Shown: piece after piece, positions 19,074-52,598 of the stretch | How positions within the stretch are numbered: position 1 is the stretch's first letter | How the letters are laid out: every line of letters starts with the position of its first letter | IMG/VR virus record: IMGVR_UViG_3300025121_000443 | Coordinates: 1 to 59,731 of that record | Length of the DNA: 59,731 nt | Direction: 5' to 3' (one strand) | From: a virus | Lineage: Duplodnaviria; Caudoviricetes | Position numbers and translations under genes: made by a program | Notes under the pieces: generated by a model | Seen by the model: only the letters and a program-made list of their open reading frames with translations | Database searches by the model: none | Told to the model about the DNA's origin: nothing

Positions 19074-20117
19074 ATGGCAGAAAAATCATGGTTTTGGGGA
19101 GGAACTACAGTAGGAGATGCTGGACCCTATAATGACGAGGAATTTTGCGATCTATTCAAATTTCTCATTCAAGGAGATCCTTCTACTCAAGGTCCAATTA
19201 AGAATGTATATAATGAATTAGCTGTTACCGCTGTGGATACGGACACTATTCAAATGGATACTGGAGCAGCTATGGTAGATGGACGATTGTATATAAATTC
19301 ATCTGCTCTGCAGAAAGATTTGGTGGATAGAGGAGTTGGTCTTCCGAATTATTATGTGTTAATTTTAAGAAAAGATTTTGACGCTCAAACTGTAACTGCA
19401 GAACTTCTTCTTGATGCAGCAGCTTATCCAGCAGTTACTCAGAATGATTCCAGTGAATGGGAAATTGCATTGTACAGAATTTTGGTTCCTGGCGGAGGAG
19501 AAGCTCTTGTAATAACAGATGTGAGAGATTTTTGTGCTTTCAATACTGTACTACGAGATAGTATTATAGATAGTGGAGATTCAATAGTAGATGGAGCTAT
19601 TCCAAGAGATAAATTAGAAGCAAAATTAGTGAAGGTATTAGTTCCTATAAATGCTAGTAATTTTGAAGGTCAAAATGCTATGTATCCAATTGCTTCTCCA
19701 GGATGGGGTTATGCTACATCAACTTCTGGATGGACGTGGTTTAAGGGATTTTATATTCTTCCAGATGACGTTGTTCCTAGCGGATTTTCTGCAGGAGTTG
19801 GCGTAAAATCTTATTCTTTATTTAGTTGTCATTTAGAAGAAGCATGGGATAGAACCATAGTTGCTTATTCTAATATACGAGCAGATAATATCGGAGCTGT
19901 TGGAAAAGAAGATGATACAGATGATTACGCAGCTATAGAATTGGATCCTTTGGAATTCAATTATATACATGAATTGGAAATAGAAGCTGCTGCTGGAGAT
20001 ATAATAACGTTGCATACTGCCAGAGCAGGTGCATATCTTGATGATACTCAATCATCTGCTGGACTTCTTGGCGTTGGTTTCTGGGGTTGGCTAATAGAAT
20101 ACTATGTGAGTGAATAA
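19074..20117 (+). CDS. Minor tail/baseplate protein
   Basis: GAAMVDGRLY.N, VTQND..WEIALYRI, ITDVRDF segments typical of baseplate upper proteins. Confidence 0.6.
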   Translation: MAEKSWFWGGTTVGDAGPYNDEEFCDLFKFLIQGDPSTQGPIKNVYNELAVTAVDTDTIQMDTGAAMVDGRLYINSSALQKDLVDRGVGLPNYYVLILRKDFDAQTVTAELLLDAAAYPAVTQNDSSEWEIALYRILVPGGGEALVITDVRDFCAFNTVLRDSIIDSGDSIVDGAIPRDKLEAKLVKVLVPINASNFEGQNAMYPIASPGWGYATSTSGWTWFKGFYILPDDVVPSGFSAGVGVKSYSLFSCHLEEAWDRTIVAYSNIRADNIGAVGKEDDTDDYAAIELDPLEFNYIHELEIEAAAGDIITLHTARAGAYLDDTQSSAGLLGVGFWGWLIEYYVSE

Positions 20118-22987
20118 TGGATAATAATTTCTCAAAAGAATTTTCTAAATCTATTCTTGCTCTTTCTAAAAGAGTACGTACTCTTGAGATTCGTCCTTTT
20201 GGGTCTGGCTCAAGCGGAGGTGAAAGTAGTGCTCCACCCGAGAAATTCCAAGTAGGTGTTCAGACAACTGCGGTAGGAGATAGAAATATAAGAATAGTAA
20301 CTGGAAAACTTTGGGAAGAAATGACCGGAACTATAATGATATCTCCTTTTGATAGTTCGGACTCATCTACATTTACTATATGGTATTTTGATGGTGCTGG
20401 TGATTGGTCGTATATATCTGGAGAACAACAAATTTTAGGTGAATATTATGACGATAGTAGTGGTACATTAGCAGAGTTATCATACGGATATTATGGTGTT
20501 TATTGGGTTATTCTTGGTTATGATGGTACTCCTTATATTTTACTCAATAAAGAGCAATACGTAACATTTGCTGATGCTCAAAAAAGTTCAATTCCATACG
20601 AAGTTCCAACAGATTTACAGACAGATGCTTTTTTCGTTGCTCGTATAATAATCCAAAAAGATGCAGAGTATTTTTCAGAATTGCTTAATTTATATTCACA
20701 AACTCTTGGAGCATTATCTGCAAGCGGTACTTCGGATAATCCGTACGCAATAATTTTATATGATAAAAGTCTACAAGAAATACGATATTATGCTGTATCC
20801 AATAGTGGATTATTCCTAGCTTTAGAAGCTTCTGCCAGTGGAGATATAATACTTATTCCTCCTGGAACTGTATCCTCAATAGAAGGTGATGGAACTCTTT
20901 TTGTTTCAACGATTGGAGCTGAAAAATGTATTAGTATAGAACCAGGTGGAGTTCTTCCTACTGGCTGGAATGAATTATCATTTGACGATTCCAGTTGGGA
21001 TGATTCTATTGCTGGAGATGGATATCAAACAATTATTGCCGGAACAGAGAGAGTTTCTCACCAAGCTGGTGATAATCCAGATCAAGGAATAATGTTATTT
21101 CGTAGAGTTATCAATATAACAGGTCCTATAACAGAAGTTAATGTCAAAGGAGATGATTATATTGATGCTGTGTATATAAATGGATCTTTAGTTTATGAAA
21201 ATGGTCCAGCAAATACACTTGGAACTGCAAATCCAAGTGTATCTGTGTCAGGATTCGGAAATAATATTATTGCATTTAAAACAAGAAATTCAACTCAACC
21301 AGCTCAGGTCATCAATTATATGGATCTTTCGTATGAAATTTCAGCAGAGGAAACATTTTTGATCATTCCAGTTGGAGTAGAAATAATTGGATTGGGAAAA
21401 AATAGTATAATTACTGGTTCCATCGAAAATAATGGTATTTTAACAAATATTCAAATTACAGGAACTATTTCAGGAACTGGCATAATGAGAATGGTTCCTA
21501 ATCCAAGCGTAGAATTATTTTCAAATCAAATCAAGAGTTTGATTGAAACAGGAACTTCTCCATTTTCCATTGAGAGCACAACTTTAAATACGAATTTAAA
21601 TGCTGATTTATTGGATGGAGAACATGCCAACGCTTTTGCAGACTCAACTCACACCCATACCGTATCTGATATTACCGATTTTCCTGCCATTGAAGATGAT
21701 CCCGTCTTATCGATAATTGAAGAGGTTGGCGATATGATTTATCGAAAACAAGATATTCCTGTATATACCAATTATGCTACGGTAGGACATGGAGCATCGG
21801 CAACAGCAAATTCTACTTATGAATCTTATGTTGCTGGGAATGCTATTGATGAGAATGACGCAACATTTTGGGCTGGTGCTTCTAATCCCGTAGCTGATGA
21901 CTGGATATATGTTAATCTAGGTCAGTCAAGAATAATTCATAGATTTAGACTTTTTCAACATATAACTGCTTGGGCAGCAACTTCGTATAAAGTACAGGGT
22001 AGTGATAATGGCATAGATTGGACAGATATTGTAACTATAACAGTGACGGCACAAGATGAAACTATTGATTTTGCTTCACCACAAACTTATCAATATTTTC
22101 GATTCTATGCTTTAGCTGGAGGGGGCAACTCTTGGGATATATTTACCATAGAACTCTTCGGAGTTCATTTGGAACCTGATAATGACATCGCACGATTGCC
22201 CATCGGCACTGAAGGTGATGTACTTACCGTTTCAGGTGGTATTCCTGCATGGGGATCAATTCCAGCTCATACCCATGAAGAAGCGGATATTACCGATCTT
22301 GACCATGATGCTGTAAAAATTGATGGTATAACGGTTGATCTTACGGGAATAACAGATGGTCAGGTGATCAAATATGATGTAGGAACAACCAGTTTGATTG
22401 CTGGAGATGATGAAGGTGGTGGGTCATTAGACGACCTTACCGATGTAGATTTAACTGATTTAGCTGATGATGATATTTTAGTTTATGATTTAGCAACAGG
22501 GACATGGTTACCAGAAACCCCTGCAACTCCTTCTTCTGCTCTTGCTGATTTGACTGACGTTGATTTAACTGGCTTAGCCGATGATGATATTTTAGTTTAT
22601 GATTTAGCAACTGGAACGTGGTTACCGGAAACTCCGGCGAGTGGAACTTCACTAACTGTAGAGGAACAAGATGGTACTCCTACTGTTGCTGACGTGATAA
22701 AAATCAAGGTAACAAATGGAACTCTTACAGATGACGGTAGTGGTGTAGTAAGTATTGATTTTGGTAGTGCTGCAACAGATGGTGCTGCCATTCATGACAA
22801 TGAAGCCAATGAAATCAGTGCAATTACAGAAAAAACCACACCTGCTGACGATGATTTATTGATTATTGAGGATAGTGCTGCAAGTTATGCGAAAAAGAGT
22901 GTAAAAATTAGCAATTTACCCTCTGGTGGTGGAACAGGAGAAGTTCCTCCAGCTTTGAAAGTAATTATGAATCAAAATTTTGTTTAG
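20117..22987 (+). CDS. Tail fibre/receptor-binding protein with jelly-roll and F5/8-type C (discoidin) domains
   Basis: W....FDDSSW, DD...VYING; LNADLLDG.H; NAIDEND.TFW, WIYVNLG, YKVQGSDNG.DW; L.DLTDV repeats. Confidence 0.75.
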   Translation: MDNNFSKEFSKSILALSKRVRTLEIRPFGSGSSGGESSAPPEKFQVGVQTTAVGDRNIRIVTGKLWEEMTGTIMISPFDSSDSSTFTIWYFDGAGDWSYISGEQQILGEYYDDSSGTLAELSYGYYGVYWVILGYDGTPYILLNKEQYVTFADAQKSSIPYEVPTDLQTDAFFVARIIIQKDAEYFSELLNLYSQTLGALSASGTSDNPYAIILYDKSLQEIRYYAVSNSGLFLALEASASGDIILIPPGTVSSIEGDGTLFVSTIGAEKCISIEPGGVLPTGWNELSFDDSSWDDSIAGDGYQTIIAGTERVSHQAGDNPDQGIMLFRRVINITGPITEVNVKGDDYIDAVYINGSLVYENGPANTLGTANPSVSVSGFGNNIIAFKTRNSTQPAQVINYMDLSYEISAEETFLIIPVGVEIIGLGKNSIITGSIENNGILTNIQITGTISGTGIMRMVPNPSVELFSNQIKSLIETGTSPFSIESTTLNTNLNADLLDGEHANAFADSTHTHTVSDITDFPAIEDDPVLSIIEEVGDMIYRKQDIPVYTNYATVGHGASATANSTYESYVAGNAIDENDATFWAGASNPVADDWIYVNLGQSRIIHRFRLFQHITAWAATSYKVQGSDNGIDWTDIVTITVTAQDETIDFASPQTYQYFRFYALAGGGNSWDIFTIELFGVHLEPDNDIARLPIGTEGDVLTVSGGIPAWGSIPAHTHEEADITDLDHDAVKIDGITVDLTGITDGQVIKYDVGTTSLIAGDDEGGGSLDDLTDVDLTDLADDDILVYDLATGTWLPETPATPSSALADLTDVDLTGLADDDILVYDLATGTWLPETPASGTSLTVEEQDGTPTVADVIKIKVTNGTLTDDGSGVVSIDFGSAATDGAAIHDNEANEISAITEKTTPADDDLLIIEDSAASYAKKSVKISNLPSGGGTGEVPPALKVIMNQNFV
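22427..22640 (+). repeat. 114-bp (38 aa) tandem repeat in tail fibre
   Basis: L.DLTDVDLT.LADDDILVYDLATGTWLPETPA twice. Confidence 0.85.
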
Positions 22988-31304: not shown

Positions 31305-31712
31305 ATGAAAATATCTTCATTTGATACAGGTATAACTACTGGAATAGTTTTGGTAGATATAGACGAAAACAAATTTGAGTCTACGGTTTTGGAGACTTTG
31401 GAAGCTAAGGAAAATGATCTATCATATTTATCAGATAGAATAGTGTATGTTAGTGATTTAATTCTGATAGAACAAACTCCATATTTTGTAGATCCTATCC
31501 TAAAAATGATCCAGGGAATGGTTACTCATCATTGCAAAATGTACGAAAGGTCAGTAAAGTTTATTTATCCTGGATTGTGGAAACCATTCGCTAAGGCTAG
31601 AAGGTGGAATAAAACTGTATCGTCTCAGCATATACAAGATGCGTATAATATGTTGAGATATGAAGTATTCTTTAGGTTCTTTACAGAGCTAAAAGATTTG
31701 GAGATAAGATGA
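31305..31712 (+). CDS. RuvC-like Holliday junction resolvase
   Basis: SFDTGITTG, ILIE, P..WK, H..DA motifs. Confidence 0.7.
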   Translation: MKISSFDTGITTGIVLVDIDENKFESTVLETLEAKENDLSYLSDRIVYVSDLILIEQTPYFVDPILKMIQGMVTHHCKMYERSVKFIYPGLWKPFAKARRWNKTVSSQHIQDAYNMLRYEVFFRFFTELKDLEIR

Positions 31713-32560
31713 ATAATGAATCCTCTGTGGCTATTGTAGGATTTGGTCCTTCAGCTATGTATGCTGTCTTAGCATGTAATTCTGTAGGAATAATTCCTAA
31801 GGTGTATGCAAATAGATTATCTATTCCTAGAGGAGCTTTTTGGTTATACAAACTTCCAGATCTAGATCATAGATTTATGAAACATTCAATTGTTATGAAA
31901 CCTCAAGGATCAGAAGAATGTTACATAGAAAAACAATGGGATGAAGTTCCAATCGAGTATAAATCTTCTTTTCCTCCAGACGATCAATTAATGTATGGTT
32001 TTGATCCGGAAATTGTTTTACCCTCAATTCTATTCAATACATCTAAATGTGAAGTAACAAGTTTAGAATCAAATATTACCGATAATGATCTTTACAATAT
32101 GTCAAATCAATTCAATTATGTATTTCATTCTTTTCCAACAGAGCGAGCTAGAAAGAAGTATAGAGATAAAATAGTAGAAAAAAGACTAATCTATATAGAC
32201 GCTGAAAGAGCTGGAAAAGATTCTTTGGTCGGTAAATTCAAACCGGATAATGTAGTTGTTTATGATGGATCATATGGAAGCATATTTGTTAGAAAGTCTT
32301 TTCTATTTGGAAATATTTATCTGGAAATTGGAAAAGATGAATATCCGGGAGTAGAAAATAGAATCTTTCACAAATTTAGCTCTGCTAGAATTGTTAAGTT
32401 CAAAGATCTTATGCCAACAGATTTTTCTGACGGATACCTTCCAATAAAGGAAAACATCATTCCAATTGGAAGAAATGCTACATTCAATCGTAAAGAATTA
32501 TCTCACGATACTTACGAAAGAGTGTTGTCATTATTGAAAAGAGATTCTAATGTCTCTTGA
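31709..32560 (+). CDS. FAD-binding oxidoreductase/mutase-like protein
   Basis: N-terminal AIVGFGPSA dinucleotide-binding motif and C-terminal IGRNATF motif. Confidence 0.6.
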   Translation: MNNESSVAIVGFGPSAMYAVLACNSVGIIPKVYANRLSIPRGAFWLYKLPDLDHRFMKHSIVMKPQGSEECYIEKQWDEVPIEYKSSFPPDDQLMYGFDPEIVLPSILFNTSKCEVTSLESNITDNDLYNMSNQFNYVFHSFPTERARKKYRDKIVEKRLIYIDAERAGKDSLVGKFKPDNVVVYDGSYGSIFVRKSFLFGNIYLEIGKDEYPGVENRIFHKFSSARIVKFKDLMPTDFSDGYLPIKENIIPIGRNATFNRKELSHDTYERVLSLLKRDSNVS

Positions 32561-33482
32561 AAAATTACTAGCTCATCAAAAAATGTATAATGATATTATA
32601 CGAAGAGAAGCTGGAAATGAAGATCCAGAATATTGGACACAAATTTATCTTTTAGGATTGGTTAGCGAAGTTGATGAAGTTTTAAGAGAAATATCTTGGA
32701 AAAGACATCGCAAATCTCATACTAATTATGCAAACAATAAAAATATCGGCTATGAGCTTGCAGATCTATTCAAATATATTTTATCTCTATTTGAAGTTTG
32801 GGGATTTTCTGCTGAAGAAATTGAAGAGTTTGTGTCATTGAAGTCTATGAGTCTAGAGCTTCGGTATGAGCAGGAATTTAAAGAAATACCTAGAGATGTT
32901 CCTATTATAATTACAGATATTGACGGAACATTGGGTGATTGGAGACAAACTTTTGAAGACTGGATCAATAGAAAAGGTATAAAACCTGAATATAAAGATC
33001 CGGTAAAAACGTTACGTATTGATGAGGATTTATCAATGCGTTATCCAGATTATTATGAGTTAAAGGAGGAATTTGAAGCATCAGGTGAATACAGAAATAT
33101 AAAGGCTTATGACGAAGTTGCAAATGTTTTGAAAAATCTAAAGGAAGAGTATAATGTCTTCATAATAGCAATAACCGCTAGACCTGCGGATAAATATAAA
33201 CGAATTTGGTTAGATACATGGCTATGGTTGAAGGAAAATGATATTCCTGTAGATAAATTGCTCATTGGATCAGATCCAAGAATATTATTGGCTCATTCTC
33301 TAAATAAGAATCAAAGAGTTATTATGCTAGAGGATGATCCAGGATTAATCATGAGAGGAGCTAATAGTGGGATTAAAGTCTTTGTTAGAACGCATCCCTA
33401 TAATTCTGGGATTATCCACAGAAACGTCAGGAGAGTCGATAGATTTACGGATATCTCCATTGACGACTACTTTAAAGAATAA
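32550..33482 (+). CDS. All-alpha dNTP pyrophosphatase (MazG/dimeric dUTPase-like) fused to HAD nucleotidase
   Basis: SEVDEVL...WK and ELADLF in N-terminus; DIDGTL, ITAR, LEDD in C-terminus. Confidence 0.8.
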   Translation: MSLEKLLAHQKMYNDIIRREAGNEDPEYWTQIYLLGLVSEVDEVLREISWKRHRKSHTNYANNKNIGYELADLFKYILSLFEVWGFSAEEIEEFVSLKSMSLELRYEQEFKEIPRDVPIIITDIDGTLGDWRQTFEDWINRKGIKPEYKDPVKTLRIDEDLSMRYPDYYELKEEFEASGEYRNIKAYDEVANVLKNLKEEYNVFIIAITARPADKYKRIWLDTWLWLKENDIPVDKLLIGSDPRILLAHSLNKNQRVIMLEDDPGLIMRGANSGIKVFVRTHPYNSGIIHRNVRRVDRFTDISIDDYFKE

Positions 33483-33540
33483 AGACATAGAAGTAGCTTT
33501 ATCAAATATAAAATATATAGAAAACGAAAGGGAAAATGAA

Positions 33541-33870
33541 ATGGAAAATCCACAAGTAAAATCAGAAATTAGCGTAAATGCAAAACCAAAAGACAAACGT
33601 GTTGAAACTTTTGGAAGAGTTTGTAGCTCTTGCGAGAAATTGTTTGAACAAAAGAACGATGAATATGGCGACACTATTGTTGCTACCGGAGTTCTTGGTG
33701 CTTCAGTTGAATTAATTGGCGTAGTTGCAAGGCTTAAGAAATTAGTTTTGCAAGCTCCAGATGGTGGAAAAGCAAACATGACGGCACTTGCTGATGTGTT
33801 CAAAGATATCCACAATTATGCCAATATTGGTCTCATGATGATGAACGAAGATAACTGGAAAGGAAAATAA
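33541..33870 (+). CDS. Nucleotide-modification-associated domain (Nmad1/DUF1599-like) protein
   Basis: LF.QKN.EYGD and D...DIHNYA motifs. Confidence 0.65.
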   Translation: MENPQVKSEISVNAKPKDKRVETFGRVCSSCEKLFEQKNDEYGDTIVATGVLGASVELIGVVARLKKLVLQAPDGGKANMTALADVFKDIHNYANIGLMMMNEDNWKGK

Positions 33871-33871
33871 A

Positions 33872-34669
33872 ATGAAAGTGCTTGCTGGGATTCCTACAAG
33901 GCTTAGAGACACAAGCGGAAAAATAGCTGATGTATTGGCTAAAGTTTGTGATGAAGTATATGTGGTATCTCAGGGAGCAACGGTAAATTCTATTTCCTCA
34001 AACGTAACGGTAGTAGAGAAGGATCTCAATTATGGGTTGGTAGCAGCTCGTAATGAGATCCTTCGTTACGCTAATGAAAAAGAATATGACATCGTTGTTC
34101 AATCTGATGACGATCTAAAATATAATCCAGATGTAATTGAAGCTCTAGTTCAAGAAGTAGTAGAAAATCCTTTGCTAGGTGCTATTGCTTCCAGTTCTAG
34201 AGCTTACTTCAGATGGAATGAAGGAAACATAACGAACCAAAATTGGGTTCTAAATCCTTGTGCTGCTCAATTGTGGGCTGCTAGAAGATCAATTCTAAAT
34301 GAGGTCGGAGAATGGGAGCTGGAATTTTTGGAAGATAGATATCACGGAGCTAAAATGTGGAGCATGGGTTATCCTATCGGATTACTCCATACTACATTAA
34401 CTCAAACACATAATCCATTTATCGCCAGAACCCAAAAGGGTGAAAGTTCAGGTGGTCAAGAACAGGGTGTGGTACGACAACAGCGTCTTCAAAAAGCAAT
34501 AGAGATACTTAATCGTGATTTCGGTAACATTGTTACCGCAACCATTCAACCTATTGGCTCAAGCAGAACATTTTCCACAAGATACAGATGGGATAAACTT
34601 ATTCAATATGTTATTGATAGATGGCAATATGGCGTAGGATATGAAGACAATAGAGGAAGGAGAATGTAA
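33872..34669 (+). CDS. GT-A fold glycosyltransferase (candidate DNA-base glycosyltransferase)
   Basis: IPT..R, GL..ARN.I, QSDDD, LED, terminal SSGG motif. Confidence 0.7.
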   Translation: MKVLAGIPTRLRDTSGKIADVLAKVCDEVYVVSQGATVNSISSNVTVVEKDLNYGLVAARNEILRYANEKEYDIVVQSDDDLKYNPDVIEALVQEVVENPLLGAIASSSRAYFRWNEGNITNQNWVLNPCAAQLWAARRSILNEVGEWELEFLEDRYHGAKMWSMGYPIGLLHTTLTQTHNPFIARTQKGESSGGQEQGVVRQQRLQKAIEILNRDFGNIVTATIQPIGSSRTFSTRYRWDKLIQYVIDRWQYGVGYEDNRGRRM

Positions 34670-35457
34670 TGAAAGTTTGTCAAGGAGAAAACGGTACTGA
34701 AGTAACTCACTCCTTTAATGATCGCGAAAGAGAAAAGATGAATTATTCTACAGGTGTTAGCGTAGAAATGTGTCCTCTTTTTGATTTCAGTAAAGAACCA
34801 TGGATGTTGATTTCCTCAATGGAAAGACAAATGATTCTTGCCTATCAAGTAGTACGATATCTTGATCTTGATCGTATTGAGGGAGAATATTCAGTCTTAG
34901 ATGTAGGCTGTGGATATTGCGAACTTTATACATTACTTCATAGATATCGCAAAGCTAAAGGCGTATCAGTAAAATACATTGGAATTGATGTGGATGTAGA
35001 TAAACAAATCATAGCAAAACAACTTCGTCCAAAAGTAGATTATCGCGTAGAAGATTTTCTTACTTCCGACCCGCTAGCGGAAGCTCCTTTTGATTGCGTT
35101 GTAAGTGGAGATGTTTTAGAACACTTTGACGCAGAAGAATCTAATGTATATCTAAAGAAAATGATTTCTATGCTCAAGGTAGGTGGTATTCTTGTTCTGA
35201 GTTATGCAACTCCATTAAGCACAAAGCATAGAGAAAATCCTTTCCACAAACTTTGTTGGAGTACAGATGATGTAGAAGTAAAATTGACAGAGCTTGGAAT
35301 GAGCATATCTGATAGCTTCTATCTTGGTATATACAAAAAGGAACTTCCATTTTGGTCAGACAGGCTTCCAACAGATTTAGCTAGAAATATTATCAGTGTA
35401 TTTGTTGACGGAGTTGAAGGTAATGAGGGTATAACAATAGCTAGAAGGATAGGATAA
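34669..35457 (+). CDS. Class I SAM-dependent methyltransferase
   Basis: VLDVGCG, YIGID, FDCVV..DVLEH, LK.GG motifs. Confidence 0.85.
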   Translation: MKVCQGENGTEVTHSFNDREREKMNYSTGVSVEMCPLFDFSKEPWMLISSMERQMILAYQVVRYLDLDRIEGEYSVLDVGCGYCELYTLLHRYRKAKGVSVKYIGIDVDVDKQIIAKQLRPKVDYRVEDFLTSDPLAEAPFDCVVSGDVLEHFDAEESNVYLKKMISMLKVGGILVLSYATPLSTKHRENPFHKLCWSTDDVEVKLTELGMSISDSFYLGIYKKELPFWSDRLPTDLARNIISVFVDGVEGNEGITIARRIG

Positions 35458-36209
35458 TGGCAGAAAATAACATCATTCAGACAATGAACTATTTTGGAAA
35501 ATTTGACATAAATTTCTTAACCTCGAAGTCAGCTACAGTTGAATTTGTAGACGGTACATTATATCCTTCAATGACTATTGCGAAAATAGCCAGAGGATAC
35601 AAAGGAATTTATTCAAATGAAATTCCTGAAAATCCTCAAGAATTATTAGATGATGTAAAATCTACTAAACTTCAAACACCAATGGAAATGATAACATTTG
35701 TATTCTTACTCAAAAGGGTTTCAAGAGCATTTACTCATCAATTAGTTAGAACAAGACATGCTTCATATGTACAGGAAAGTATGAGATTCTTGGGTCATAA
35801 AAATACCTATGAAGTTCTTGTTACTAACAAAGTAAAGAACAATCCAGAAGCTTTTAGAGCATACATGGAAACTTGTGGAACAGCTATCTATGAGTATGAG
35901 CATTTATTGGATTCAGGAATGCCCTCAGAAGATGCTCGCGGTGTATTGCCAACAAATATTATGACCTCTATATTTGTTCACTTACCGCTTAGCAGTCTTC
36001 AACGAATATATACTCAAAGACTATGTTGTCAAGCCCAAGAAGAATGGTATCATGTAGTAAAACAATTCAAAGTATCTTTGAGAGCTGAATATGGCGATGA
36101 TGTAGACGAATGGTTATCCGCTCCGGTAGAACGGGGAGAACCCTGCGGATACAATGCAAGTTTTGACAGACCATGTGTCTGGAAAAATGGGAAGGAAGAG
36201 GAGAGCTAA
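35457..36209 (+). CDS. thyX: Flavin-dependent thymidylate synthase-like protein (variant motif)
   Basis: VSRAFTHQLVRTRHASYVQESMRF, EDARGVLP, R.C.QAQ.E. Confidence 0.8.
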   Translation: MAENNIIQTMNYFGKFDINFLTSKSATVEFVDGTLYPSMTIAKIARGYKGIYSNEIPENPQELLDDVKSTKLQTPMEMITFVFLLKRVSRAFTHQLVRTRHASYVQESMRFLGHKNTYEVLVTNKVKNNPEAFRAYMETCGTAIYEYEHLLDSGMPSEDARGVLPTNIMTSIFVHLPLSSLQRIYTQRLCCQAQEEWYHVVKQFKVSLRAEYGDDVDEWLSAPVERGEPCGYNASFDRPCVWKNGKEEES

Positions 36210-36210
36210 C

Positions 36211-36417
36211 ATGTTAATTGGAAGATGTAAATCATGTGGAAGTACTGATCTTCAATTGGATCATTCTCTATTAGTATGCTCTACTTGTGGCAAAGAATTA
36301 AAGTTCTATCAAATAGAATTTATAGTTGTAGATGGTATTGTTCACGGAGAACCCTTTAGACATGATAATCCAGAAACTACTATTCAGCATAGATTACCTT
36401 TGATGGAGAGTGTATGA
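36211..36417 (+). CDS. Zinc-ribbon protein
   Basis: CKSCG...CSTCG; RBS GAGGAG. Confidence 0.55.
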   Translation: MLIGRCKSCGSTDLQLDHSLLVCSTCGKELKFYQIEFIVVDGIVHGEPFRHDNPETTIQHRLPLMESV

Positions 36418-37058
36418 TGTATCCTATGCCCTCTTCATGCCAAATCAAAAACTTAGCTGAAATATATGAATTTATCTTTAAAGAAAAGACGAATGGTTTC
36501 TTTGTAGATGTGGGTGCATACGATGGATTTGAGTGGTCAAATACGTGGGCTTTGTCAGAAGCTGGATGGGAAGGATTATGTATTGAACCTTATCCCATGT
36601 ACGCTGAAAAATGTATGAATAAACATAATCAAGCTGGTCATAAAGTTACTACTCTTCAATGTGCAGTTGGTGAAGCTAATTGTAGATGTAACATGTTCCT
36701 TGATCCTACCGGATGTTCTCATACAATTGATGCAGAAACCACCATAAGATCTCCATGGGGTTTTGAATATGATGGCTCAAAACTAGAAGTAGATTGTTTT
36801 ACTCTTGATTTTATTCTCGACAATATGATGAAAACTTCTAAACATATTGATGTATTGAATATAGACGTAGAGGGTGCTGAGCTAAAGGTAATGGATGGAT
36901 TTTCATTTGTGAAAAGAAAACCAACCCTAGTGATCATAGAAACTCATAAGGGTCAGTATGGAAAAGATTTCCATGCTGAAGAAATTTTTAATCTAATGAG
37001 TTATTTTGGATATGAAGAAATACAATCTGATGGATTAAATTCTATTTTTAAAATCTAA
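36414..37058 (+). CDS. FkbM-family methyltransferase
   Basis: FVDVGAYDG..SN, W.GLCIEP, IDVLNIDVEGAE motifs. Confidence 0.88.
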   Translation: MMYPMPSSCQIKNLAEIYEFIFKEKTNGFFVDVGAYDGFEWSNTWALSEAGWEGLCIEPYPMYAEKCMNKHNQAGHKVTTLQCAVGEANCRCNMFLDPTGCSHTIDAETTIRSPWGFEYDGSKLEVDCFTLDFILDNMMKTSKHIDVLNIDVEGAELKVMDGFSFVKRKPTLVIIETHKGQYGKDFHAEEIFNLMSYFGYEEIQSDGLNSIFKI

Positions 37059-37076
37059 TACTTTTGGAGGACGAAA

Positions 37077-39051
37077 GTGTCTCAATATATAATAACTCTT
37101 GATGAATTAATGAGAGGTAGCGGTAGCACGATATCTCTAGACACTGAAACCACTGGTCTGTCGTGGTCAAATGATAAGCTAATTGGAGTAGGAACATACT
37201 GTAAAAATTTGAATGTCATGGGATATGTTCCCACACTTGACGATGTGGAAAGAAATAGAGTAAAATCTGCTCTAAAAGAACTTTCTAAAGATACAACAAT
37301 CATAATGCACAATGCAAAATTCGATCTCCACTTTATGGGATTAAACCCAACAAAGGGAGGTTGGAAAATTTTAGATACGACTGTTATGGTTCATCTTCTA
37401 GATTCCAGAAATAAAAAGTCTTTGAAAGAATCTGAGAATACTTTTCTTGGAACAGATAGCAAAAGACATCACGTAGCAGCAGCTCCAGCAAGAACCAAAA
37501 TTTGGGATTGGAGCCTGGATTTGGTTAGTGCATATTGTGCGAATGACTGCTTAGTAACCTATCAACTTGCGGAGGTTTTATATCCAAGACTGGAAGCTGA
37601 GGGTCTTCTGAAAGTATTTTGGAAAGAAATGAAATATCTGCGAGTTGTAAACGACATAGAAGAATATGGCGTGGTATTAGACGAAGATTTTGTTTACTCT
37701 GCTTCTGCAAAACTAGGAAGAAGTCTTGAGAAAATGGAAGAGGAACTCTATGATGCGTGTGGTAACACCTTCAACTGGAGAAGTCCTCAACAATTATCCA
37801 AAGCAATTTATGATGGACTTGGGATTCCAAGGCCAAAGAATCCATTTGCAGATGCTGACGGTATAGACCGTAGTAGATTTGCAGATTCCGGTAAATACAA
37901 ATCTACTTGCACGAGCACATTTCTTCTTACCGAGAAGGTTCATCATCCTCTTGGAGAATCCTCTTGGAGAACTTATAAGCTCTATGAGAGAATGTGCCAA
38001 ACTGCGAAAAAGTTTGCTGAAATATCTAGAGCTAAAAGACGAAAACAGAATACTTCATACAACATTCAACATGACTGGTACTCGTACAGGTAGATTGAGT
38101 TCATCTAAACCTAATTTGCAGAATGTAGCTTCTGCTACACGTGGTAGATTTACTCAATCTGTTTATACTGGTAGTGTTGAAAGAACAGACGAGTTCAATA
38201 TGCGCAGGGCAATCAAACCTCGTCCAGGACATGTCTTTGTAGCTGTAGACTATAAGCAAATGGAAATGAGAATGTTTGGTATACTTTCTCAAGATCCGTT
38301 TATGTTGAATGCGTTGCTTGCAGGTAAGGATGTTCACTTAGAAATAGCTTTGAAAGTTTGGGGTGATTGTGGCTATGATATGAATATGGTACATCGTGAG
38401 TGGTCTAAAACAATTACATTCGGATTAATTTATGGAATGACTCTTGGTAGTTTGCAGTATAAATTGAATATGACAAGAATGCAAGCTGCGAAAGTAACTG
38501 ATCAATATTGGGGAGAATTTCCTCGCATCAAACCCTGGATGAATGAAATCATAGAATCCTGTAAAATGATGGGATTCGTAAGATATTGGAGTGGAAGAAT
38601 ATGGAGAGAAGACAATCCTCTGGATATGTATAGAGGTTGTAATGCTCTAATTCAAGGTGGTTGTGCTGACTTTCTCTCTATAGCTGCGATAAAAGTTTAT
38701 GAATGGACGCTAAAACAACCTAGTCATCATATAATAAATTTAGTGCATGATGAAATTATAACGGAAGTTCCAGAAAATGATATCTTGAGATCTGCAAGAG
38801 TAATTTCAGAGCTTATGCAGGTTCCAGAAATATTTAACATTCCATTTGCTACAGATGCTAAAGTAGGAATATCTTATGGAGAAATGGTAAAGATAGACAA
38901 AGAATTATTATTAGATAATTCAATTGAAAGCATATCAATGGAAGAATTGTATGCTAGAGATAAAATATCTCATGATGCTAAAATAGCTGTTACTGAAGAA
39001 AAGGAAAATCCATTTGAAGAAGAACTAGAAGAAGAACTCTCAGAGGAGTAA
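37077..39051 (+). CDS. polA: Family A DNA polymerase with 3'-5' exonuclease, frameshifted by a 13-bp tandem duplication
   Basis: LDTET, HNAKFD, Y..ND exonuclease motifs; TGRLSS..PNLQN, DYKQMEMR, K...FGLIYG, VHDE; removing one ATCCTCTTGGAGA copy gives one 653-aa ORF. Confidence 0.9.
37945..37970 (+). repeat. 13-bp perfect tandem duplication in polA
   Basis: ATCCTCTTGGAGA ATCCTCTTGGAGA. Confidence 0.95.
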
Positions 39052-39054
39052 ATT

Positions 39055-39234
39055 ATGACAGCATTCATTACAGTTTGTCCATTTTGCCTTACTCTGTACA
39101 TGATCGACTTCTATGAGGGAGAATTATGTCCAACTTGTGGGGTAGAAGAGCTTATATCTTATTACGAATATTCTTTGAGATTGAATACATCCTTTATGGA
39201 TGCGTTGGAAGAGGAGCGTGGAAATGACTCCTGA
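39055..39234 (+). CDS. Small zinc-ribbon protein (59 aa, below ORF-track cut-off)
   Basis: MTAFITVCPFC...LCPTCG; RBS GAGGAG; fills polA-primase gap. Confidence 0.55.
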   Translation: MTAFITVCPFCLTLYMIDFYEGELCPTCGVEELISYYEYSLRLNTSFMDALEEERGNDS

Positions 39235-41710
39235 AGCATCAATAGAACCGCTTTTGCTGGAAATATTTGGAGGAAATCCCTACCACGCAAGAGCAAATGA
39301 AAAGAATGGAGATATTTATTATGCTCCTGTAGAAGTTCCACTTACTCTTGAGCATTTAAAAGAACACGTTGAAGGAATAAGTTGTTTAGGATCTTATCAA
39401 TTAGCTCAGGGTTCAGATACTGTAAAATGGCTAGGGTGGGACATTGACGATAAAGACAATGAAAATGCCAGAAAAACGGTAAAGAAGATTGTAAAGCACT
39501 TAGGATCAATACCACATTGTGTAGAGTTTTCAGGAGGAAAAGGATATCATGTTTTAGTATTCCTGGAATCCCCGTTACCAGCTGTAAAGGCTAAGAAGAT
39601 CGTTGATTGGGTACGAGAAAAAGAAGGCTTTGCTGTTACCGGAGATTCTCATGTAGAATGCTTTCCTAAACAAGACCAATTAACTAAGATAAGATCTAAA
39701 GGAAATCTACTCAAAATACCGTGTGGACTGCATCCTAGAACACATAATCGTTCAGTATTTGTAGACCCCAATAATGGTTGGGAACATGGTGCATTAGAAG
39801 ATCCTTCCATAGTTTTAGCTCAAAGGGCAGATGTAAATGATGTTCTTGACATTGCTTCAGAGGGACCTTCAGTAGATGTACAGCTTGTAAATTTACTATC
39901 TCAATATTGGGAAAGCGGAAAAAGACATGATCTATCCCTCTATCTTAGTGGATTTCTGGCACACGAATCTTGGGGAATTGATCAGACTAAGAAATTGATC
40001 GAGGATATATGTCATGCTGTTGGAGATGAAGAAGTATACAATAGACTTCAAACTGTAGAAACCACATTTATAAAGCATAAAGAAGGAAAGAGTATTCGCG
40101 GTAGACAGGGATTAGGAGAAATACTACCGATTTCTACTCTTCAGAAGCTAACTGAACTTGTGGCTACAATCAGAGCTCCAGATACAGTTGCACAAATAGA
40201 TGATATTAGATACTCTAAAGGAAGAGCAAAATTAGATAGCGTTCGTCTAGCAAGTAATACTATTTGGAGTATTATGAATGACGAAGGATGCAAAATATTC
40301 CAGACAGATCAGGCTGTTGCATATTGGTATAACGCTGAAGATCATTCTGTAACTGAGGAAGCTTCTGAACCTTGGAAGGCTTTGCTAAATAAATTGTTTG
40401 GACTTAATCCACAAGATTCCTTTAGTAAACTAATTTTTCAAGAACTAAGATTGCGTATAGTAAGAGATGCACCTATTGTTCCCATACAAAACAGAACATA
40501 TTGGAGTGAAAGTCCACCTAGACTATATGTAAATCTTGGAGGTCCTGAAGTATATATTTTGGATGGAAAGACGATAGAAAAAGGATACAATGGTGAATGT
40601 GGTCACATGTTCATTACAAATCAGAATGCTGTATATTCTATTCCTGATTTTGATGCACCGCCTGTAGATGCTTGGGATTATCTGGTAAATGACCTATCGT
40701 TTACCGTTTCTGCTGATGCACCTGCAAAACCAGAGGAACAAAGAGAGTTATTGAAGGCTTGGCTACTTGCATTTTTCTTCCAAGAGCTTATGCCAACGAA
40801 ACCAATTCTTGCCATGTTAGGGCAACCTGGAAGCGGTAAGACCACAGCCATTCGTAGGATTTTACGAATATTTGAAAATCCAGACTCGGATGTATTAGGT
40901 GTACCTACCGATAAACAGGATGCTTTTAGAGCCAGTATTGCTTCTCATAGACTTCTGGTACTGGATAACTTAGAGAAGTCTGGTGCTTACTGGATGGTTG
41001 ATATGCTCAACAAATTAGCAACAGGAAATAATATTGAATTACGAGAACTTTACAAAACGAATTCTAAATTTACTATTGTTCCCAAATGTTTTATAGCGTG
41101 TACAGCCGTCAACATGCCATTCAGCGATGAAACATTATTTTCTAGATTGCTTGTGTTAGAAATGGATCAATTAGCAGAACCTATTGCAGAGCATATTCTG
41201 CAAAGAAAAATAAAGGAATTCGGTCCAGCTATCTGGGCAGATTTACTTACGAAACTAAATCACATAATTCAATCATTGCTTCTAAACAAAAATGTAAAAG
41301 CTCCGACAAAGAGTAGGCTCGTAGACTTTACCGTTTTCTGTGCAAGGATAAGATATTGCTCGGTAGTAGACGGAGATAAACTAAATCTTGGATTGCTATC
41401 TATGGTAGACGCTCAGTTGAGACAACTAAAAGAGAGTTCTCAAGCTATAGTTCTTATAGAGGAGTGGTTATCTATAAAACCGCAAGAAGCAGCAGAGTGG
41501 AAAACATTCCAAGAACTCTATATTGTGTTGCAAACAATGGCTCAAAGCAGGAGAATGGACTTTAAGTGGAAGAATGTTACAGGGTTGTCTAGACATTTGA
41601 GTACATTACAGGATAGACTTCAAAAAGACTTTGGGGCAGAATTTGAGGATTACTACTCTGCTCAGCAAGGAAAGGATGTTACACGTATAAGATTCCGAAC
41701 AATTATGTAG
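39224..41710 (+). CDS. AEP primase-polymerase fused to P-loop helicase
   Basis: WDID, FSGGKGYHV, NLLKIPCGLH; GKRH (PriCT-like); GQPGSGKTT, LVLDN. Confidence 0.85.
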   Translation: MTPEASIEPLLLEIFGGNPYHARANEKNGDIYYAPVEVPLTLEHLKEHVEGISCLGSYQLAQGSDTVKWLGWDIDDKDNENARKTVKKIVKHLGSIPHCVEFSGGKGYHVLVFLESPLPAVKAKKIVDWVREKEGFAVTGDSHVECFPKQDQLTKIRSKGNLLKIPCGLHPRTHNRSVFVDPNNGWEHGALEDPSIVLAQRADVNDVLDIASEGPSVDVQLVNLLSQYWESGKRHDLSLYLSGFLAHESWGIDQTKKLIEDICHAVGDEEVYNRLQTVETTFIKHKEGKSIRGRQGLGEILPISTLQKLTELVATIRAPDTVAQIDDIRYSKGRAKLDSVRLASNTIWSIMNDEGCKIFQTDQAVAYWYNAEDHSVTEEASEPWKALLNKLFGLNPQDSFSKLIFQELRLRIVRDAPIVPIQNRTYWSESPPRLYVNLGGPEVYILDGKTIEKGYNGECGHMFITNQNAVYSIPDFDAPPVDAWDYLVNDLSFTVSADAPAKPEEQRELLKAWLLAFFFQELMPTKPILAMLGQPGSGKTTAIRRILRIFENPDSDVLGVPTDKQDAFRASIASHRLLVLDNLEKSGAYWMVDMLNKLATGNNIELRELYKTNSKFTIVPKCFIACTAVNMPFSDETLFSRLLVLEMDQLAEPIAEHILQRKIKEFGPAIWADLLTKLNHIIQSLLLNKNVKAPTKSRLVDFTVFCARIRYCSVVDGDKLNLGLLSMVDAQLRQLKESSQAIVLIEEWLSIKPQEAAEWKTFQELYIVLQTMAQSRRMDFKWKNVTGLSRHLSTLQDRLQKDFGAEFEDYYSAQQGKDVTRIRFRTIM

Positions 41711-43003: not shown

Positions 43004-43438
43004 ATGAAAATAAATCAAAAAGTAAAAGAAAAGATAGAGGAAATTCTAACAGACAGAAATGTTCGAAAGCAAGCTAAGAGCTTTGCCCTGGAAAGCAATT
43101 TGGAAGACAAAGAAAAATTTGTTCAAGAATTCATGCATATGTACAAATGTAAAAAGATTATCGGAAGATATGTTGTAAAGTTCACAGCATCAGATATGGA
43201 CGAAAATGAAAATATAGCCGTAAATTTGTTGGGATCTATTCTTAATTCTGTGTTAGTTATAACGACCAATGATAATCCTGACTATTCCTTTAGAGCAGTT
43301 GAAACATTGGGAAAAATTTGTTTTGACATTACTAAAGAATGTGGTACAGCTTCTGATCAATTTGAGCTGATGGCTCTAATGACTAAGTATAACCTGAATG
43401 AGGAAACAGAAGAATATGGAGAAGACGAAGATGGATAG
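43004..43438 (+). CDS. Hypothetical protein
   Basis: RBS AAGGAG before ATG 43004. Confidence 0.5.
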   Translation: MKINQKVKEKIEEILTDRNVRKQAKSFALESNLEDKEKFVQEFMHMYKCKKIIGRYVVKFTASDMDENENIAVNLLGSILNSVLVITTNDNPDYSFRAVETLGKICFDITKECGTASDQFELMALMTKYNLNEETEEYGEDEDG

Positions 43439-44069
43439 ATTAATTCAAGAAACAATTATGCACATAAAATCTAGCATAGAAGGAAGAATGTGCGACGAAG
43501 CTAACGATAATTTGTATCTTGGAAGAGCTATCCTCGAAGCAACAGATGGAAATCATTTGGAAATTGGAAGTTTGTTTGGTGGTTCTGCCATATTTGCAGC
43601 TCTGCTAAAGAAAGCTCTAGGATTTAAATGTCATGTGTATGCTATCGATCCGTTCTCTGGATATTATCTAGATACCGTAAATGATCAGGGTCAGAAGATT
43701 GGAGGACTTGCTGATCCCTTTTCTACCGTTCCTGTTTCTTTGGAAACGGCTATGCGTAATGCTGAAAAATTTGGAGTAAGTGATAGAATAACATTTATTC
43801 AAGCATTATCCTATCCCTTTCCAGAGCAATTAAAATACGAAACTTTTGCTACAGCTTACATAGACGGAGATCATTGGAATCTAGCCCCTACATTGGATTG
43901 GTTATCTGTAAAAGATATTACTACTAAGTTGGTTATATTTGACAATAATGATGGAAGAATTGGGGTAGATACTGCGTGTAAAGTAGCAGCAAGCTCTAAG
44001 GGGTGGAGAGAATACTGGAATCATGGTATTACATATATAGTTAGAAAGGATAGTTGGTATGATGTCTAA
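43431..44069 (+). CDS. Class I SAM methyltransferase (Methyltransf_24-like)
   Basis: LEIGSLFGGS, AIDPF, YIDGDH, IFDN motifs. Confidence 0.8.
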   Translation: MDRLIQETIMHIKSSIEGRMCDEANDNLYLGRAILEATDGNHLEIGSLFGGSAIFAALLKKALGFKCHVYAIDPFSGYYLDTVNDQGQKIGGLADPFSTVPVSLETAMRNAEKFGVSDRITFIQALSYPFPEQLKYETFATAYIDGDHWNLAPTLDWLSVKDITTKLVIFDNNDGRIGVDTACKVAASSKGWREYWNHGITYIVRKDSWYDV

Positions 44070-52193: not shown

Positions 52194-52598
52194 TCATTTT
52201 GAATATCCTGCCCAATCATATTCTATTTTTGGTTCCTCAGTCCAACCAAATTGTGAATAATATTCATAATTTTTAGCCAATAATGCAGCACGATGAGTGG
52301 TATGAATATTTCCACCAAACCAGTCAGGAACAACAACTTCACGAATAGACGGAAATCTTTCCATCATAGAATCATTGTAACCACGACTGATCCACTCTGC
52401 ACACATAATAAGAGCATATTGTATCAAGGCATTTTCCCACTTTTCCCACATTTTGAACGCTGGATGATTGCGCCAGCTACTATCTGTATGAAAGCAACGC
52501 CATAATTGATATGCTTCTACTCGCTGCTTACCGAGCCTACGGTAGTCCAACACCTCTGCGGATTTTGCGAAGCTAGGATAGGGTAGAAATGTCTGCAT
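52194..52598 (-). CDS. Pyrimidine-dimer DNA glycosylase family protein (DenV-like)
   Basis: MQTFLPY..F..SA..LD.RRLGKQRVE, HPA..MW, EW..RG, H...LL.K...Y. Confidence 0.85.
   Translation of the reverse strand: MQTFLPYPSFAKSAEVLDYRRLGKQRVEAYQLWRCFHTDSSWRNHPAFKMWEKWENALIQYALIMCAEWISRGYNDSMMERFPSIREVVVPDWFGGNIHTTHRAALLAKNYEYYSQFGWTEEPKIEYDWAGYSK

Follow-up and report, generated by a model that had tools for sequence, protein, structure and literature searches.

To our knowledge, the characterized routes to modified phage pyrimidines start either from a ThyA-fold enzyme that acts on the nucleotide or from a methyltransferase that acts together with TET on the DNA. Here we describe a phage gene cassette in which neither a ThyA-fold nor a TET entry was found, yet which carries other hallmarks of a modified-pyrimidine route. 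It occupies positions 31709-39051 of a 59,731 bp virus record (IMG/VR record IMGVR_UViG_3300025121_000443, analysed over its full length and called the window below), and belongs to the replication module of an uncultured groundwater siphovirus, as the part that serves nucleotide metabolism. The gene content, folds, co-occurrence and motifs of the cassette are established, and its core appears to consist of a compact flavoprotein, a HAD phosphatase and a phage-type ThyX. The reading that we rank first, and hold tentatively, is that the cassette is a pre-replicative pyrimidine-tailoring set.

The general logic of such a set is already known: a canonical deoxynucleoside triphosphate (dNTP) is drained, a C5-substituted deoxynucleoside monophosphate (dNMP) is made and the DNA is glycosylated. 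The T-even hydroxymethylcytosine pathway (gp56 dCTPase, gp42 hydroxymethylase, gp1 kinase and the alpha- and beta-glucosyltransferases) and the hydroxymethyluracil pathways of the SPO1/PhiW-14 type follow it, and the cassette shares with these an all-alpha-superfamily dNTP pyrophosphatase, a thymidylate-synthase-like dNMP enzyme and a glycosyltransferase (GT) suited to a post-replication step. Set against a T4-type pathway, the window has a dNTPase-like domain and a GT, whereas a ThyA-fold hydroxymethylase and a dNMP kinase were not found in it; it has instead a ThyX fold with a flavoprotein partner. The cassette GT is of the GT-A type (TAGT-like), in contrast to the GT-B enzymes of T4, and the nucleotidase is fused to the pyrophosphatase. 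The proposed enzymes, a ThyX fold with a nucleotidase and a flavoprotein of the UDP-galactopyranose mutase (UGM) fold, are characterized nowhere. A 2026 paper describes 5-hydroxy-dCMP made by ThyA homologues and then arabinosylated, a route that uses a different fold. Our literature search for ThyX together with hypermodification, hydroxymethyluracil or an oxidoreductase in phages found no function assigned to this cassette.

Bacillus phage SP-15 contains 5-(4',5'-dihydroxypentyl)uracil, which is later glycosylated, and has two Thy1-family genes; according to the available text of PMC5977210, this thymine substitute has a ribose-derived five-carbon chain. The titles of references 42 and 43 in that paper indicate that the base is made at the nucleotide level, and the roles given there to SP-15 genes are hypotheses of its authors. 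The points of likeness to the cassette are a thymine substitute with a sugar-derived carbon chain, proteins of the Thy1 family and glycosylation. The two differ in sequence, the profile of the window's ThyX clade matching a single SP-15 protein, gp9, and that weakly (E-value 3.4e-5).

The Pbunaviruses F8 and 14-1, earlier thought to be unmodified, contain thymidine derivatives of 362 and 390 U, which have been interpreted as tetrose sugar-alcohol and cyclized aldopentose derivatives (PMC12191111, a 2025 preprint). The available text of that preprint assigns no genes to the derivatives, and the words thymidylate and ThyX are absent from it. Pbunavirus phiKTN6, a relative of F8 and 14-1 that was not among the phages analysed there, encodes a Rossmann protein with a GxGxxG motif (gp65), a ThyX (gp59) and a HAD protein (gp57) beside an exonuclease and a polymerase. 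Its likeness to the window lies in the phage-type ThyX, in which H53 is changed to I, R74 to H, E86 to Q and D176 to C, and in having no ThyA-fold enzyme; the difference is that the GT family of the cassette is absent from it. By analogy, these three Pbunavirus genes may be tied to the thymidine modification. Homologous Rossmann proteins also lie beside thyX in phages Gekk3-15, FEC19 and PVA7. Members of this Rossmann family (GxGxxG, about 330 aa) stand next to phage-type thyX genes in a Pbunavirus, an Aeromonas phage and a coliphage (L091:10581-11582, which is phiKTN6 gp65, L090:305-1279 and L092:5491-6486, L numbers being our labels for loci), and they share a GR.AT.W motif with the flavoprotein family of the window.

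Flavoprotein, phosphatase and ThyX in related phages

The first-pass annotation, made from the sequence alone, had described nine genes ending in that of the DNA polymerase as one hypermodification unit. All nine are on the + strand, at or near the places it gave, with mostly correct labels, and their junctions are overlaps of 1-11 nt or gaps of 1-58 nt. The order and content of the run are beyond chance, since some 18 related viral loci show the same succession of RuvC-like protein, flavoprotein, pyrophosphatase-HAD fusion, Nmad1-like protein, ThyX and the family A DNA polymerase (PolA). Viral contigs scanned with ThyX or the flavoprotein as a single protein gave no relatives. The loci compared here were reached through ThyX relatives (732 at an E-value of 0.001 or less among 901 candidates), of which 32 of the 120 listed were aligned; the alignment led to 532 confirmed IMG/VR loci, and the best 80 were kept. 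Near-duplicates are included, so that the counts refer to loci and not to lineages.

Neighbourhoods were counted in two ways, by tblastn at 1e-4 in the 80 loci and by profiles run against every ORF of these loci and of the window (81 in all). By tblastn, roughly 18-20 loci share a helicase, an exonuclease, Sak4, an SSB-like and a RuvC-like protein, the flavoprotein, the pyrophosphatase-HAD fusion, the Nmad1-like protein, ThyX, PolA and a primase-polymerase, while the GT was seen in 8, the zinc ribbon in 3, the class I methyltransferase in 2 and the FkbM methyltransferase in none. The profiles, applied within 10 kb of thyX, found ThyX in 80 of the 81 loci, the flavoprotein in 72 and the HAD domain in 59, the last usually encoded directly after the flavoprotein gene; the pyrophosphatase domain was found in 23, the Nmad1-like protein in 24 and the GT in 10, one of these marginal. 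When whole viral records behind 50 of the 80 loci were searched (a selection that removed duplicates and short loci), the flavoprotein profile matched 48 of the 50, 46 of them over the full length, and it matched all 18 of the records that are at least 90 % complete. In the complete genomes behind L009 and L020 the flavoprotein is present and there is no GT2 match anywhere. The flavoprotein thus appears to be an obligate companion of this ThyX clade. The GT and both methyltransferases are accessory genes, FkbM being unique to this phage among the loci examined, and the run does not behave as one unit: around a conserved core, the GT and both methyltransferases have been inserted at varying places.

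The same pairing is found in cultured actinophages. Although tblastn left the window flavoprotein unmatched among cultured phages, homologues were reached through matches to the HAD protein and to ThyX, followed by hhalign. Gordonia phage Ranch encodes an 'oxidoreductase' (gp69) followed by a 'nucleotide pyrophosphohydrolase/phosphatase' (gp70), with a MazG-like gp81 and a ThyX-like gp84 further on; the hhalign alignment of gp69 with the flavoprotein family spans 256 columns (probability 99.5 %, E-value 2e-22), which makes it a full-length homologue. This protein matches 126 phage records, from phages of Gordonia (46), Microbacterium (36), Mycobacterium (32), Streptomyces (9), Arthrobacter (2) and Nocardia (1). 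The window ThyX matches 562 records, including 48, 36, 32 and 9 from the first four of these genera, and from these near-equal counts flavoprotein and ThyX pair almost one to one among actinophages. The set recurs as gp58, gp59 and gp65 of mycobacteriophage PBI1 and as gp52, gp53 and gp55 of Microbacterium phage Chivey; in Chivey the two genes on which the argument for flavoprotein and ThyX linkage draws overlap each other. The actinophage versions are true homologues, with the same ThyX signature residues and the same order of helicase, Cas4-type exonuclease, Sak4/RecA-like protein, flavoprotein and phosphatase. They differ from the window in having a DnaE-like polymerase rather than PolA and a phosphatase that is mostly unfused, and Ranch is without this GT family. 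Among actinophages, both PBI1 (gp60-gp62, L084) and Ranch (gp73-gp75, L083) have genes for a methyltransferase and a FabG-like short-chain reductase in the interval that separates the flavoprotein/phosphatase pair from the polymerase. In coliphage FEC19 (L092) the HAD gene is followed by one for a 3-oxoacyl-ACP reductase, and gene 129 of SP-15, annotated as an ACP reductase, adjoins the ThyX-family gene 130.

The flavoprotein gene (31709-32560, + strand) encodes 283 aa with a GxGxxA motif at the N-terminus, and its family comprises 206 cluster representatives. A Pfam scan matched the protein to no family; among 66 relatives only two matched FMO-like models and one AlaDh_PNT_C, and neither the protein nor these relatives matched the GLF or NAD_binding_8 models. 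The AlphaFold2 (AF2) model (pLDDT 94.3) has a two-domain fold of the flavin adenine dinucleotide (FAD) type, with an FAD Rossmann domain and a beta-sheet substrate domain and without a second dinucleotide domain. In the VIA structural search the UGM 4dsg_A comes first (Z 16.0, rmsd 3.8 over 267 aligned residues). Next are FixC (Z 14.0) and the UGMs 3hdq_A (13.6) and 4mo2_A (12.7), with many amine oxidases, desaturases and monooxygenases at Z 11.5-13.3. Foldseek against the PDB placed DAAO and an indole monooxygenase first, with UGM also among the matches, at TM-scores of 0.5-0.58. On the predicted model the fold is closest to that of UGM, although its lead over other folds is modest. A predicted complex of ThyX with the flavoprotein scored 0.00 against a mark of 0.32, a result that counts neither way.

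This resemblance bears on a chain of reactions modelled on the first-pass annotation, in which ThyX makes a hydroxymethyl-type dUMP, a UGM-like flavoenzyme supplies a UDP-furanose, the GT transfers the furanose to the base and the two methyltransferases O-methylate it. The FAD-binding assignment agrees with the predicted fold, and the UGM at the head of the VIA matches (with two more UGM-family entries in the top nine), the TAGT-like character of the GT and the fact that FkbM and class I methyltransferases are common sugar and hydroxyl methylases are all in keeping with the chain. We nevertheless judge it very improbable. The flavoprotein shares with UGM (Glf) an FAD Rossmann domain and a beta-sheet domain, but the matched UGMs have 365-473 aa and are thus some 100-190 residues longer, and the GLF model does not match; moreover, the flavoprotein tracks ThyX and not the GT in the counts given above, and is kept in the L009 and L020 genomes, which argues against a role as furanose-maker for the GT. 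The rarity of the class I methyltransferase (2 of 80 loci) and the lack of FkbM in all 80 likewise speak against the two methyltransferases as members of the pathway.

The second core gene (32550-33482, + strand) encodes a fusion of an all-alpha dNTP pyrophosphatase (residues 1-108) and a HAD phosphatase (residues about 115-305), as the Pfam, PHROG and profile matches indicate. Residues 3-99 match dUTPase_2 (24.8 bits, Pfam cut-off 22.9), and the PHROG matches are phrog_173 (NTP-PPase) and phrog_420/415. The pyrophosphatase domain has an invariant D72, an almost invariant E40 and the motifs SE.DEV and ELADL; its profile finds DCTPP1/RS21-C6 and dimeric dUTPases at E-values of 0.006-0.05. The HAD domain has a DIDGT sequence, and all 18 sequences compared share T209, D262 and the two aspartates of the DxDGT motif, D123 and D125. 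Its profile matches the cytosolic and mitochondrial 5'(3')-deoxyribonucleotidases cdN and mdN at E-values from 1e-5 to 0.02, although the generic HAD phosphatase 3sd7 scores better (7.9e-7); in Pfam only HAD_2 is matched, at 15 bits and under its cut-off. We therefore describe the protein as a putative fusion of an all-alpha dNTP pyrophosphatase and a 5'(3')-deoxyribonucleotidase-like HAD domain, which would degrade a dNTP to the nucleoside in two steps. A pyrophosphatase-HAD fusion had been called from the start, and its likely activities fit the removal of a canonical nucleotide.

The small helical protein encoded next (33541-33870, + strand) is Nmad1/DUF1599-like on weak support from PHROG, Pfam and the Atlas; its start is likely ATG 33541 and not GTG 33367. 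It matches phrog_1485 (E-value 6.9e-9), and in an Atlas feature search 18 of the 30 nearest clusters carry DUF1599 on part of their members (score 0.94), both in support of the original Nmad1-like label. PF07659 (DUF1599), on the other hand, does not match the protein of this record and matches one of 18 relatives (E-value 0.0025), and the name Nmad1 is taken from the Pfam description line alone. The family has a conserved motif, KN..YGDAI..TGVLGA. PDB sequence searches with the single pyrophosphatase-HAD protein, and with the Nmad1-like protein or its profile, returned nothing useful.

The phage-type ThyX (35457-36209, + strand) matches the Pfam Thy1 model PF02511 at 106.9 bits (107.3 in a repeat; cut-off 24.8) and the NCBIfam equivalog TIGR02170 at 87.1 bits, just under the cut-off of 87.9. 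Its residues were mapped to Thermotoga maritima ThyX by single-sequence and profile alignments to PDB chains, and were counted over 83 clade sequences (79 loci, the window and three actinophages, duplicates included). The dUMP-binding residues of the T. maritima enzyme, Q75, R78, R80, S88, R90, R147 and R174, are all present in the window protein, and all are found in 83 of the 83 sequences save R147, found in 81. Elsewhere the clade departs from T. maritima: H53 is replaced by L or I (82 of 83), R74 by H (83), E86 by Q (83), Y91 by F (81), D176 by C (81) and H178 by Q (82), and 75 have a C-terminal cysteine pair. The window protein has L, Q, F and Q at the positions of H53, E86, Y91 and H178, which we take to form the folate and flavin side of the pocket.

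A ThyA-fold enzyme (PF00303) was found in none of five records, namely the window, two relatives (95 % and 100 % complete), phiKTN6 and Ranch, with the control positive in 10 of 14 genomes. This agrees with the earlier suggestion that a ThyX-fold enzyme stands where ThyA-fold enzymes were expected, and, since the window and the two near-complete relatives are without ThyA, ThyX is the only thymidylate-synthase-like enzyme available. No deaminase was found among the scanned ORFs of the window.

Two readings of this core compete. The second, which we rank closely after pyrimidine tailoring and regard as a real possibility though also short of probable, is that the phage has an ordinary thymidylate supply beside unrelated glycan genes. 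The pyrophosphatase, as a dUTPase or a house-cleaning enzyme, would then supply dUMP to a normal, if divergent, ThyX, the flavoprotein would be a dedicated redox helper, and the HAD domain would balance or clean the pool. The ThyX scores speak for this and count against tailoring: the protein falls 0.8 bits short of the equivalog cut-off and keeps every dUMP-binding residue, and its product may simply be dTMP. A dUTPase-type enzyme next to a thymidylate synthase is the textbook route from dUTP through dUMP to dTMP, and Ranch and Chivey have MazG-like genes in the vicinity of ThyX. The 126 cultured actinophage records mentioned above contain the cassette, and we know of no base modification reported for cassette-bearing actinophages, nor did the literature search find one. 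What an ordinary supply leaves unexplained is the fixed presence, in the ThyX clade, of a phosphatase and of a flavoprotein in which no NAD(P)H domain is evident. Such partners are not required for plain thymidylate synthesis, and their linkage therefore favours tailoring; a nucleotidase would also be wasteful beside an enzyme that uses dUMP or makes dTMP. Moreover the Pbunaviruses, with an analogous set, were long presumed unmodified and proved to be modified, according to the available text of PMC12191111.

The glycosyltransferase and the methyltransferases

The cassette GT (33872-34669, + strand) is an accessory GT-A glycosyltransferase that resembles the TAGT/JGT enzymes by Pfam, PHROG, motifs and the AF2 model. 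It matches Glycos_transf_2 (Pfam E-value 1.8e-9), and its only two PHROG matches are phrog_842 (beta-glucosyl-HMC alpha-GT, 9e-4) and a generic GT family. The family is small, with 23 proteins at an E-value of 0.001 or less, apparently all from this phage group, and tblastn left the window GT unmatched among cultured phages; its profile likewise had no match in phiKTN6, Gekk3-15, FEC19, PVA7 or Ranch. In 26 aligned sequences R10/R12 are nearly invariant and D79-D80-D81 and E154-D155 are invariant, a pattern like the R...DDD...ED(Y/F) motif described for phage GT-A enzymes acting on 5-hydroxymethylcytosine and for the base-J glucosyltransferase JGT (bioRxiv 10.1101/2023.12.21.572611, available text). 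Glycos_transf_2 is matched by 21 of the 26 members and the TAGT model PF20691 by 17 (E-values up to 0.1, the best 6.4e-6).

The AF2 model of the GT (pLDDT 92.8) has a GT-A fold. Against BFVD, viral models annotated as TAGT stand at ranks 2, 6, 10, 12, 15 and 23, with TM-scores of about 0.6; against PDB structures the polypeptide GalNAc-transferases match best and SpsA is also found. GT-A folds all score alike, and the structural resemblance to TAGT is suggestive only. The TAGT/JGT family (PF20691, with the phage GT-A enzymes of MT-5mYOX clusters) shares with the cassette GT a fold and a motif, and TAGT proteins are among its top viral structural matches. In agreement with the first suggestion that it decorates DNA, the cassette GT appears nearer to DNA-acting GT-A enzymes (TAGT/JGT and beta-glucosyl-HMC alpha-GT) than do the other GTs of the window.

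The gene is placed either between the Nmad1-like gene and thyX or directly after thyX, and always beside one of them. The cluster GT stands alone in the complete genome behind L015, and that behind L007 has both structural-arm GTs without it, so that the cluster GT is independent of other GT2 genes. In the window, two such proteins are encoded in the structural arm (1761-3461, 566 aa, GT2 with a GT1-like C-terminal domain; 6309-7682, 457 aa, GT2), with two ORFs of 430-470 aa between them and a DUF1360 membrane-type protein after them (7679-8014); these may serve virion or surface glycosylation, and homologues of the GTs are present in relatives irrespective of the cluster GT.

The class I methyltransferase (34669-35457, + strand), of a type that acts on small molecules, matches Methyltransf_11 (E-value 5e-11) and related models. 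The FkbM-family methyltransferase (36414-37058, + strand) matches Methyltransf_21 (PF05050) at 70.4 bits against a cut-off of 22.7 and TIGR01444 at 58.4 bits against 37.7. A third methyltransferase, of the TylF/Methyltransf_24 type (a family of sugar O-methylases), is encoded in the replication arm (43398-44069), and a similar one follows thyX in L002.

These genes supply the other half of the case for an ordinary thymidylate supply, in which the GT, the methyltransferases, the structural-arm GT2 proteins and the TylF-like enzyme would decorate virion proteins or a host surface polymer. Glycosylation of virions through phage GT and methyltransferase genes has precedents among mycobacteriophages. 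The window has three GT2 proteins, one with a GT1-like second domain, and three methyltransferases of types often seen in sugar methylation, so that work on a protein glycan is plausible; the cassette GT and methyltransferases are accessory, the best PDB matches of the GT are protein O-GalNAc transferases, and its pI is near neutral. Set against this, the GT gene is never located with those of the structural-arm GTs, exists without them and lies only beside thyX or the Nmad1-like gene, and it has the DDD/ED motif and affinities to TAGT.

Proposed role of the cassette

Pyrimidine tailoring is ranked first because the flavoprotein and phosphatase are fixed partners of ThyX, a dNTP pyrophosphatase is present, a DNA-type GT is placed only here, no ThyA-fold enzyme was found and the Pbunavirus DNA proved to be modified. 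The cassette would work on the nucleotide pool before replication. The pyrophosphatase-nucleotidase would drain a canonical pyrimidine dNTP, and ThyX, still able to bind dUMP, would act with the flavoprotein to attach to C5 of dUMP a carbon substituent that is other than, or goes beyond, a plain methyl group. Host kinases and the phage PolA would bring the product into DNA, where the TAGT/JGT-like GT-A would probably add a sugar to a hydroxyl of the base in this phage and in roughly half of the phages closely related to it. The two methyltransferases, class I and FkbM, would be lineage-specific additions, and their target may be a sugar. The individual chemical steps, the substrate of each enzyme and DNA as the acceptor are what we infer from the genes. 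Of the first-pass interpretation, what survives is the fusion, the DNA-type GT and the lack of a ThyA-fold enzyme and of a kinase, while the furanose, the methyltransferases as pathway members and the single unit find no support.

Several observations, in addition to the ThyX scores and the glycan genes described above, weigh against tailoring. No dNMP kinase is found among the scanned ORFs of the window, as had been noticed before, in a record estimated to be 71 % complete. TET/JBP (PF12851) was found in none of five GT-bearing records, but the control was nowhere positive and the search is uninformative, so that the missing TET/JBP or C5-methyltransferase partner, a difference from TAGT/JGT clusters, carries the same limit. 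The window GT itself reaches only 14.2 bits against PF20691, below the gathering cut-off of 27.5, and its family is near-neutral (median pI 6.4), which is not decisive. A pyrimidine-dimer glycosylase like T4 endo V (PF03013, E-value 1.4e-21) is encoded amid small early genes at 52194-52598 (- strand) and suggests that ordinary pyrimidines persist in the DNA.

Nor are the ThyX substitutions specific to the cassette. The first-pass annotation had called the enzyme a variant, and the changes are indeed present in 81-83 of the 83 clade sequences, but several are common to four of five other phage ThyX proteins (those of phiKTN6, FEC19, PVA7 and Gekk3-15), whereas the fifth, from Clostridium phage CP26F, retains the canonical set of residues. 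They therefore appear to mark a broad phage-type ThyX and not this cluster alone.

The comparison with modified phages also has its weak points. The flavoprotein profile matched none of the five phages with other ThyX types, although Rossmann proteins stand beside their thyX genes, so that they are not clean negative controls. The alignment of the flavoprotein with the Pbunavirus Rossmann proteins is marginal (hhalign probability 62 %, E-value 7.6e-5, 60 columns); the 60 C-terminal columns include the common GR.AT.W motif, and the N-terminal motif is shared too. The flavoprotein profile had no match in SP-15. The Pbunavirus derivatives, finally, replace about a quarter of the thymidine, in a TG context, which is a poor fit to a route at the level of the nucleotide pool (PMC12191111, available text).

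A more specific proposal, which we think unlikely but consider worth stating, is that flavoprotein, ThyX and HAD phosphatase together form a nucleotide C5-alkylating machine in which a sugar, and not folate, is the carbon donor. The UGM-fold flavoprotein would open a sugar or sugar phosphate as a flavin-N5 iminium, the rewired ThyX would present C5 of dUMP to the sugar carbon and in some lineages reduce the product, and the HAD phosphatase would remove the phosphate of the donor. This would yield a 5-(polyhydroxyalkyl)- or 5-C-glycosyl-dUMP, the class of base found in F8, 14-1 and SP-15, and in this phage the TAGT-like GT would add another sugar to the chain in DNA. The proposal is based on fold resemblance and on our own arithmetic with the published masses, in which 362 U equals dU with a reduced pentose chain at C5 and 390 U equals C-hexosyl-dU or pentosyl-O-hydroxymethyl-dU.

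Should the sugar-donor proposal be true, well over 100 cultured actinophages and many uncultured phages would have an unnoticed thymine substitute. The cassette is in any event very common, as its 206 flavoprotein cluster representatives, 532 IMG/VR ThyX-clade loci and 126 cultured actinophage records attest, and it offers candidate genes for two problems, the sugar-like thymidine derivatives of the Pbunaviruses, which include therapeutic phages, and the SP-15 base. A new base would matter for how phages resist restriction and CRISPR, for the selection of therapeutic phages and for the sequencing and cloning of such DNA, and might bring new flavin chemistry and DNA-labelling enzymes. If, conversely, only dTMP is made, the cassette represents a hitherto unstudied form of ThyX with two or three components.

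A further alternative places the cassette outside the DNA precursor pool altogether, acting on RNA or tRNA uridines, on a flavin or folate cofactor, or on a secreted or cell-wall nucleotide-sugar, and standing in the replication module by linkage only. The functions of the core proteins are predicted only, flavin-dependent uracil methylation is described for RNA too (PMC8989533, available text), and an MptE-like (DUF115) protein is encoded directly after thyX in L019 (10735-11361), although its score of 33.0 is below the Pfam cut-off of 34.6. We consider this improbable, in view of the constant place of the cassette between recombination genes and the DNA polymerase gene, in PolA and DnaE phages alike, the conserved dUMP-binding residues and the deoxyribonucleotidase type of the HAD domain.

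Polymerase, neighbouring genes and source record

The run ends with the gene of a family A DNA polymerase with a 3'-5' exonuclease domain (37077-39051, + strand), identified by its Pfam matches. In this record it is divided into two reading frames by a perfect 13-nt tandem duplication (37945-37970, + strand). The duplication is missing from contigs of all four other runs compared, and PolA is a single ORF of 606-712 aa in relatives, so that PolA is one gene that is intact in the population; the duplication is probably an assembly artefact or a rare variant. In L004 and L018 the PolA match is interrupted by insertions of 0.7-0.8 kb. Mobile elements are also present in the same module of relatives, a GIY-YIG/NUMOD3 endonuclease gene following thyX in L018 (10728-11429) and an HNH-AP2 endonuclease gene preceding that of the flavoprotein in L008 (7257-7724).

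Between thyX and the FkbM gene lies a gene for a CxxC...CxxC zinc-ribbon protein (36211-36417, + strand). Its matches to zinc-ribbon models are weak and all below the cut-offs, and of the candidate starts at 36154, 36187 and 36211 the ATG at 36211 is probably the one used. Downstream of polA, a Cys-rich ORF of 59 aa (39055-39234), conserved in two relatives, precedes a fused AEP primase-polymerase and D5-like NTPase (39200-41710), the top Pfam match of which is the AEP domain of TOTE conflict systems.

The record, of the linear class in IMG/VR, has a siphovirus-type tail module with a tape measure gene (12436-17001), Dit and others; the replication module follows it on the + strand, and the coding strand flips near 48 kb. 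Near-identical DNA occurs in groundwater and soil metagenome contigs, and at least half of the stretch is covered in 15 of the 20 runs listed. A tail protein of 956 aa that contains an F5/8 type C (galactose-binding-like) domain (20117-22987) and a glycine-rich-domain protein (PF21722, 23392-24219) are likely receptor-binding parts. On the - strand, a gene at 54257-55744 encodes a GHKL-ATPase protein of 495 aa with weak PHROG matches of the RIIA-like type.

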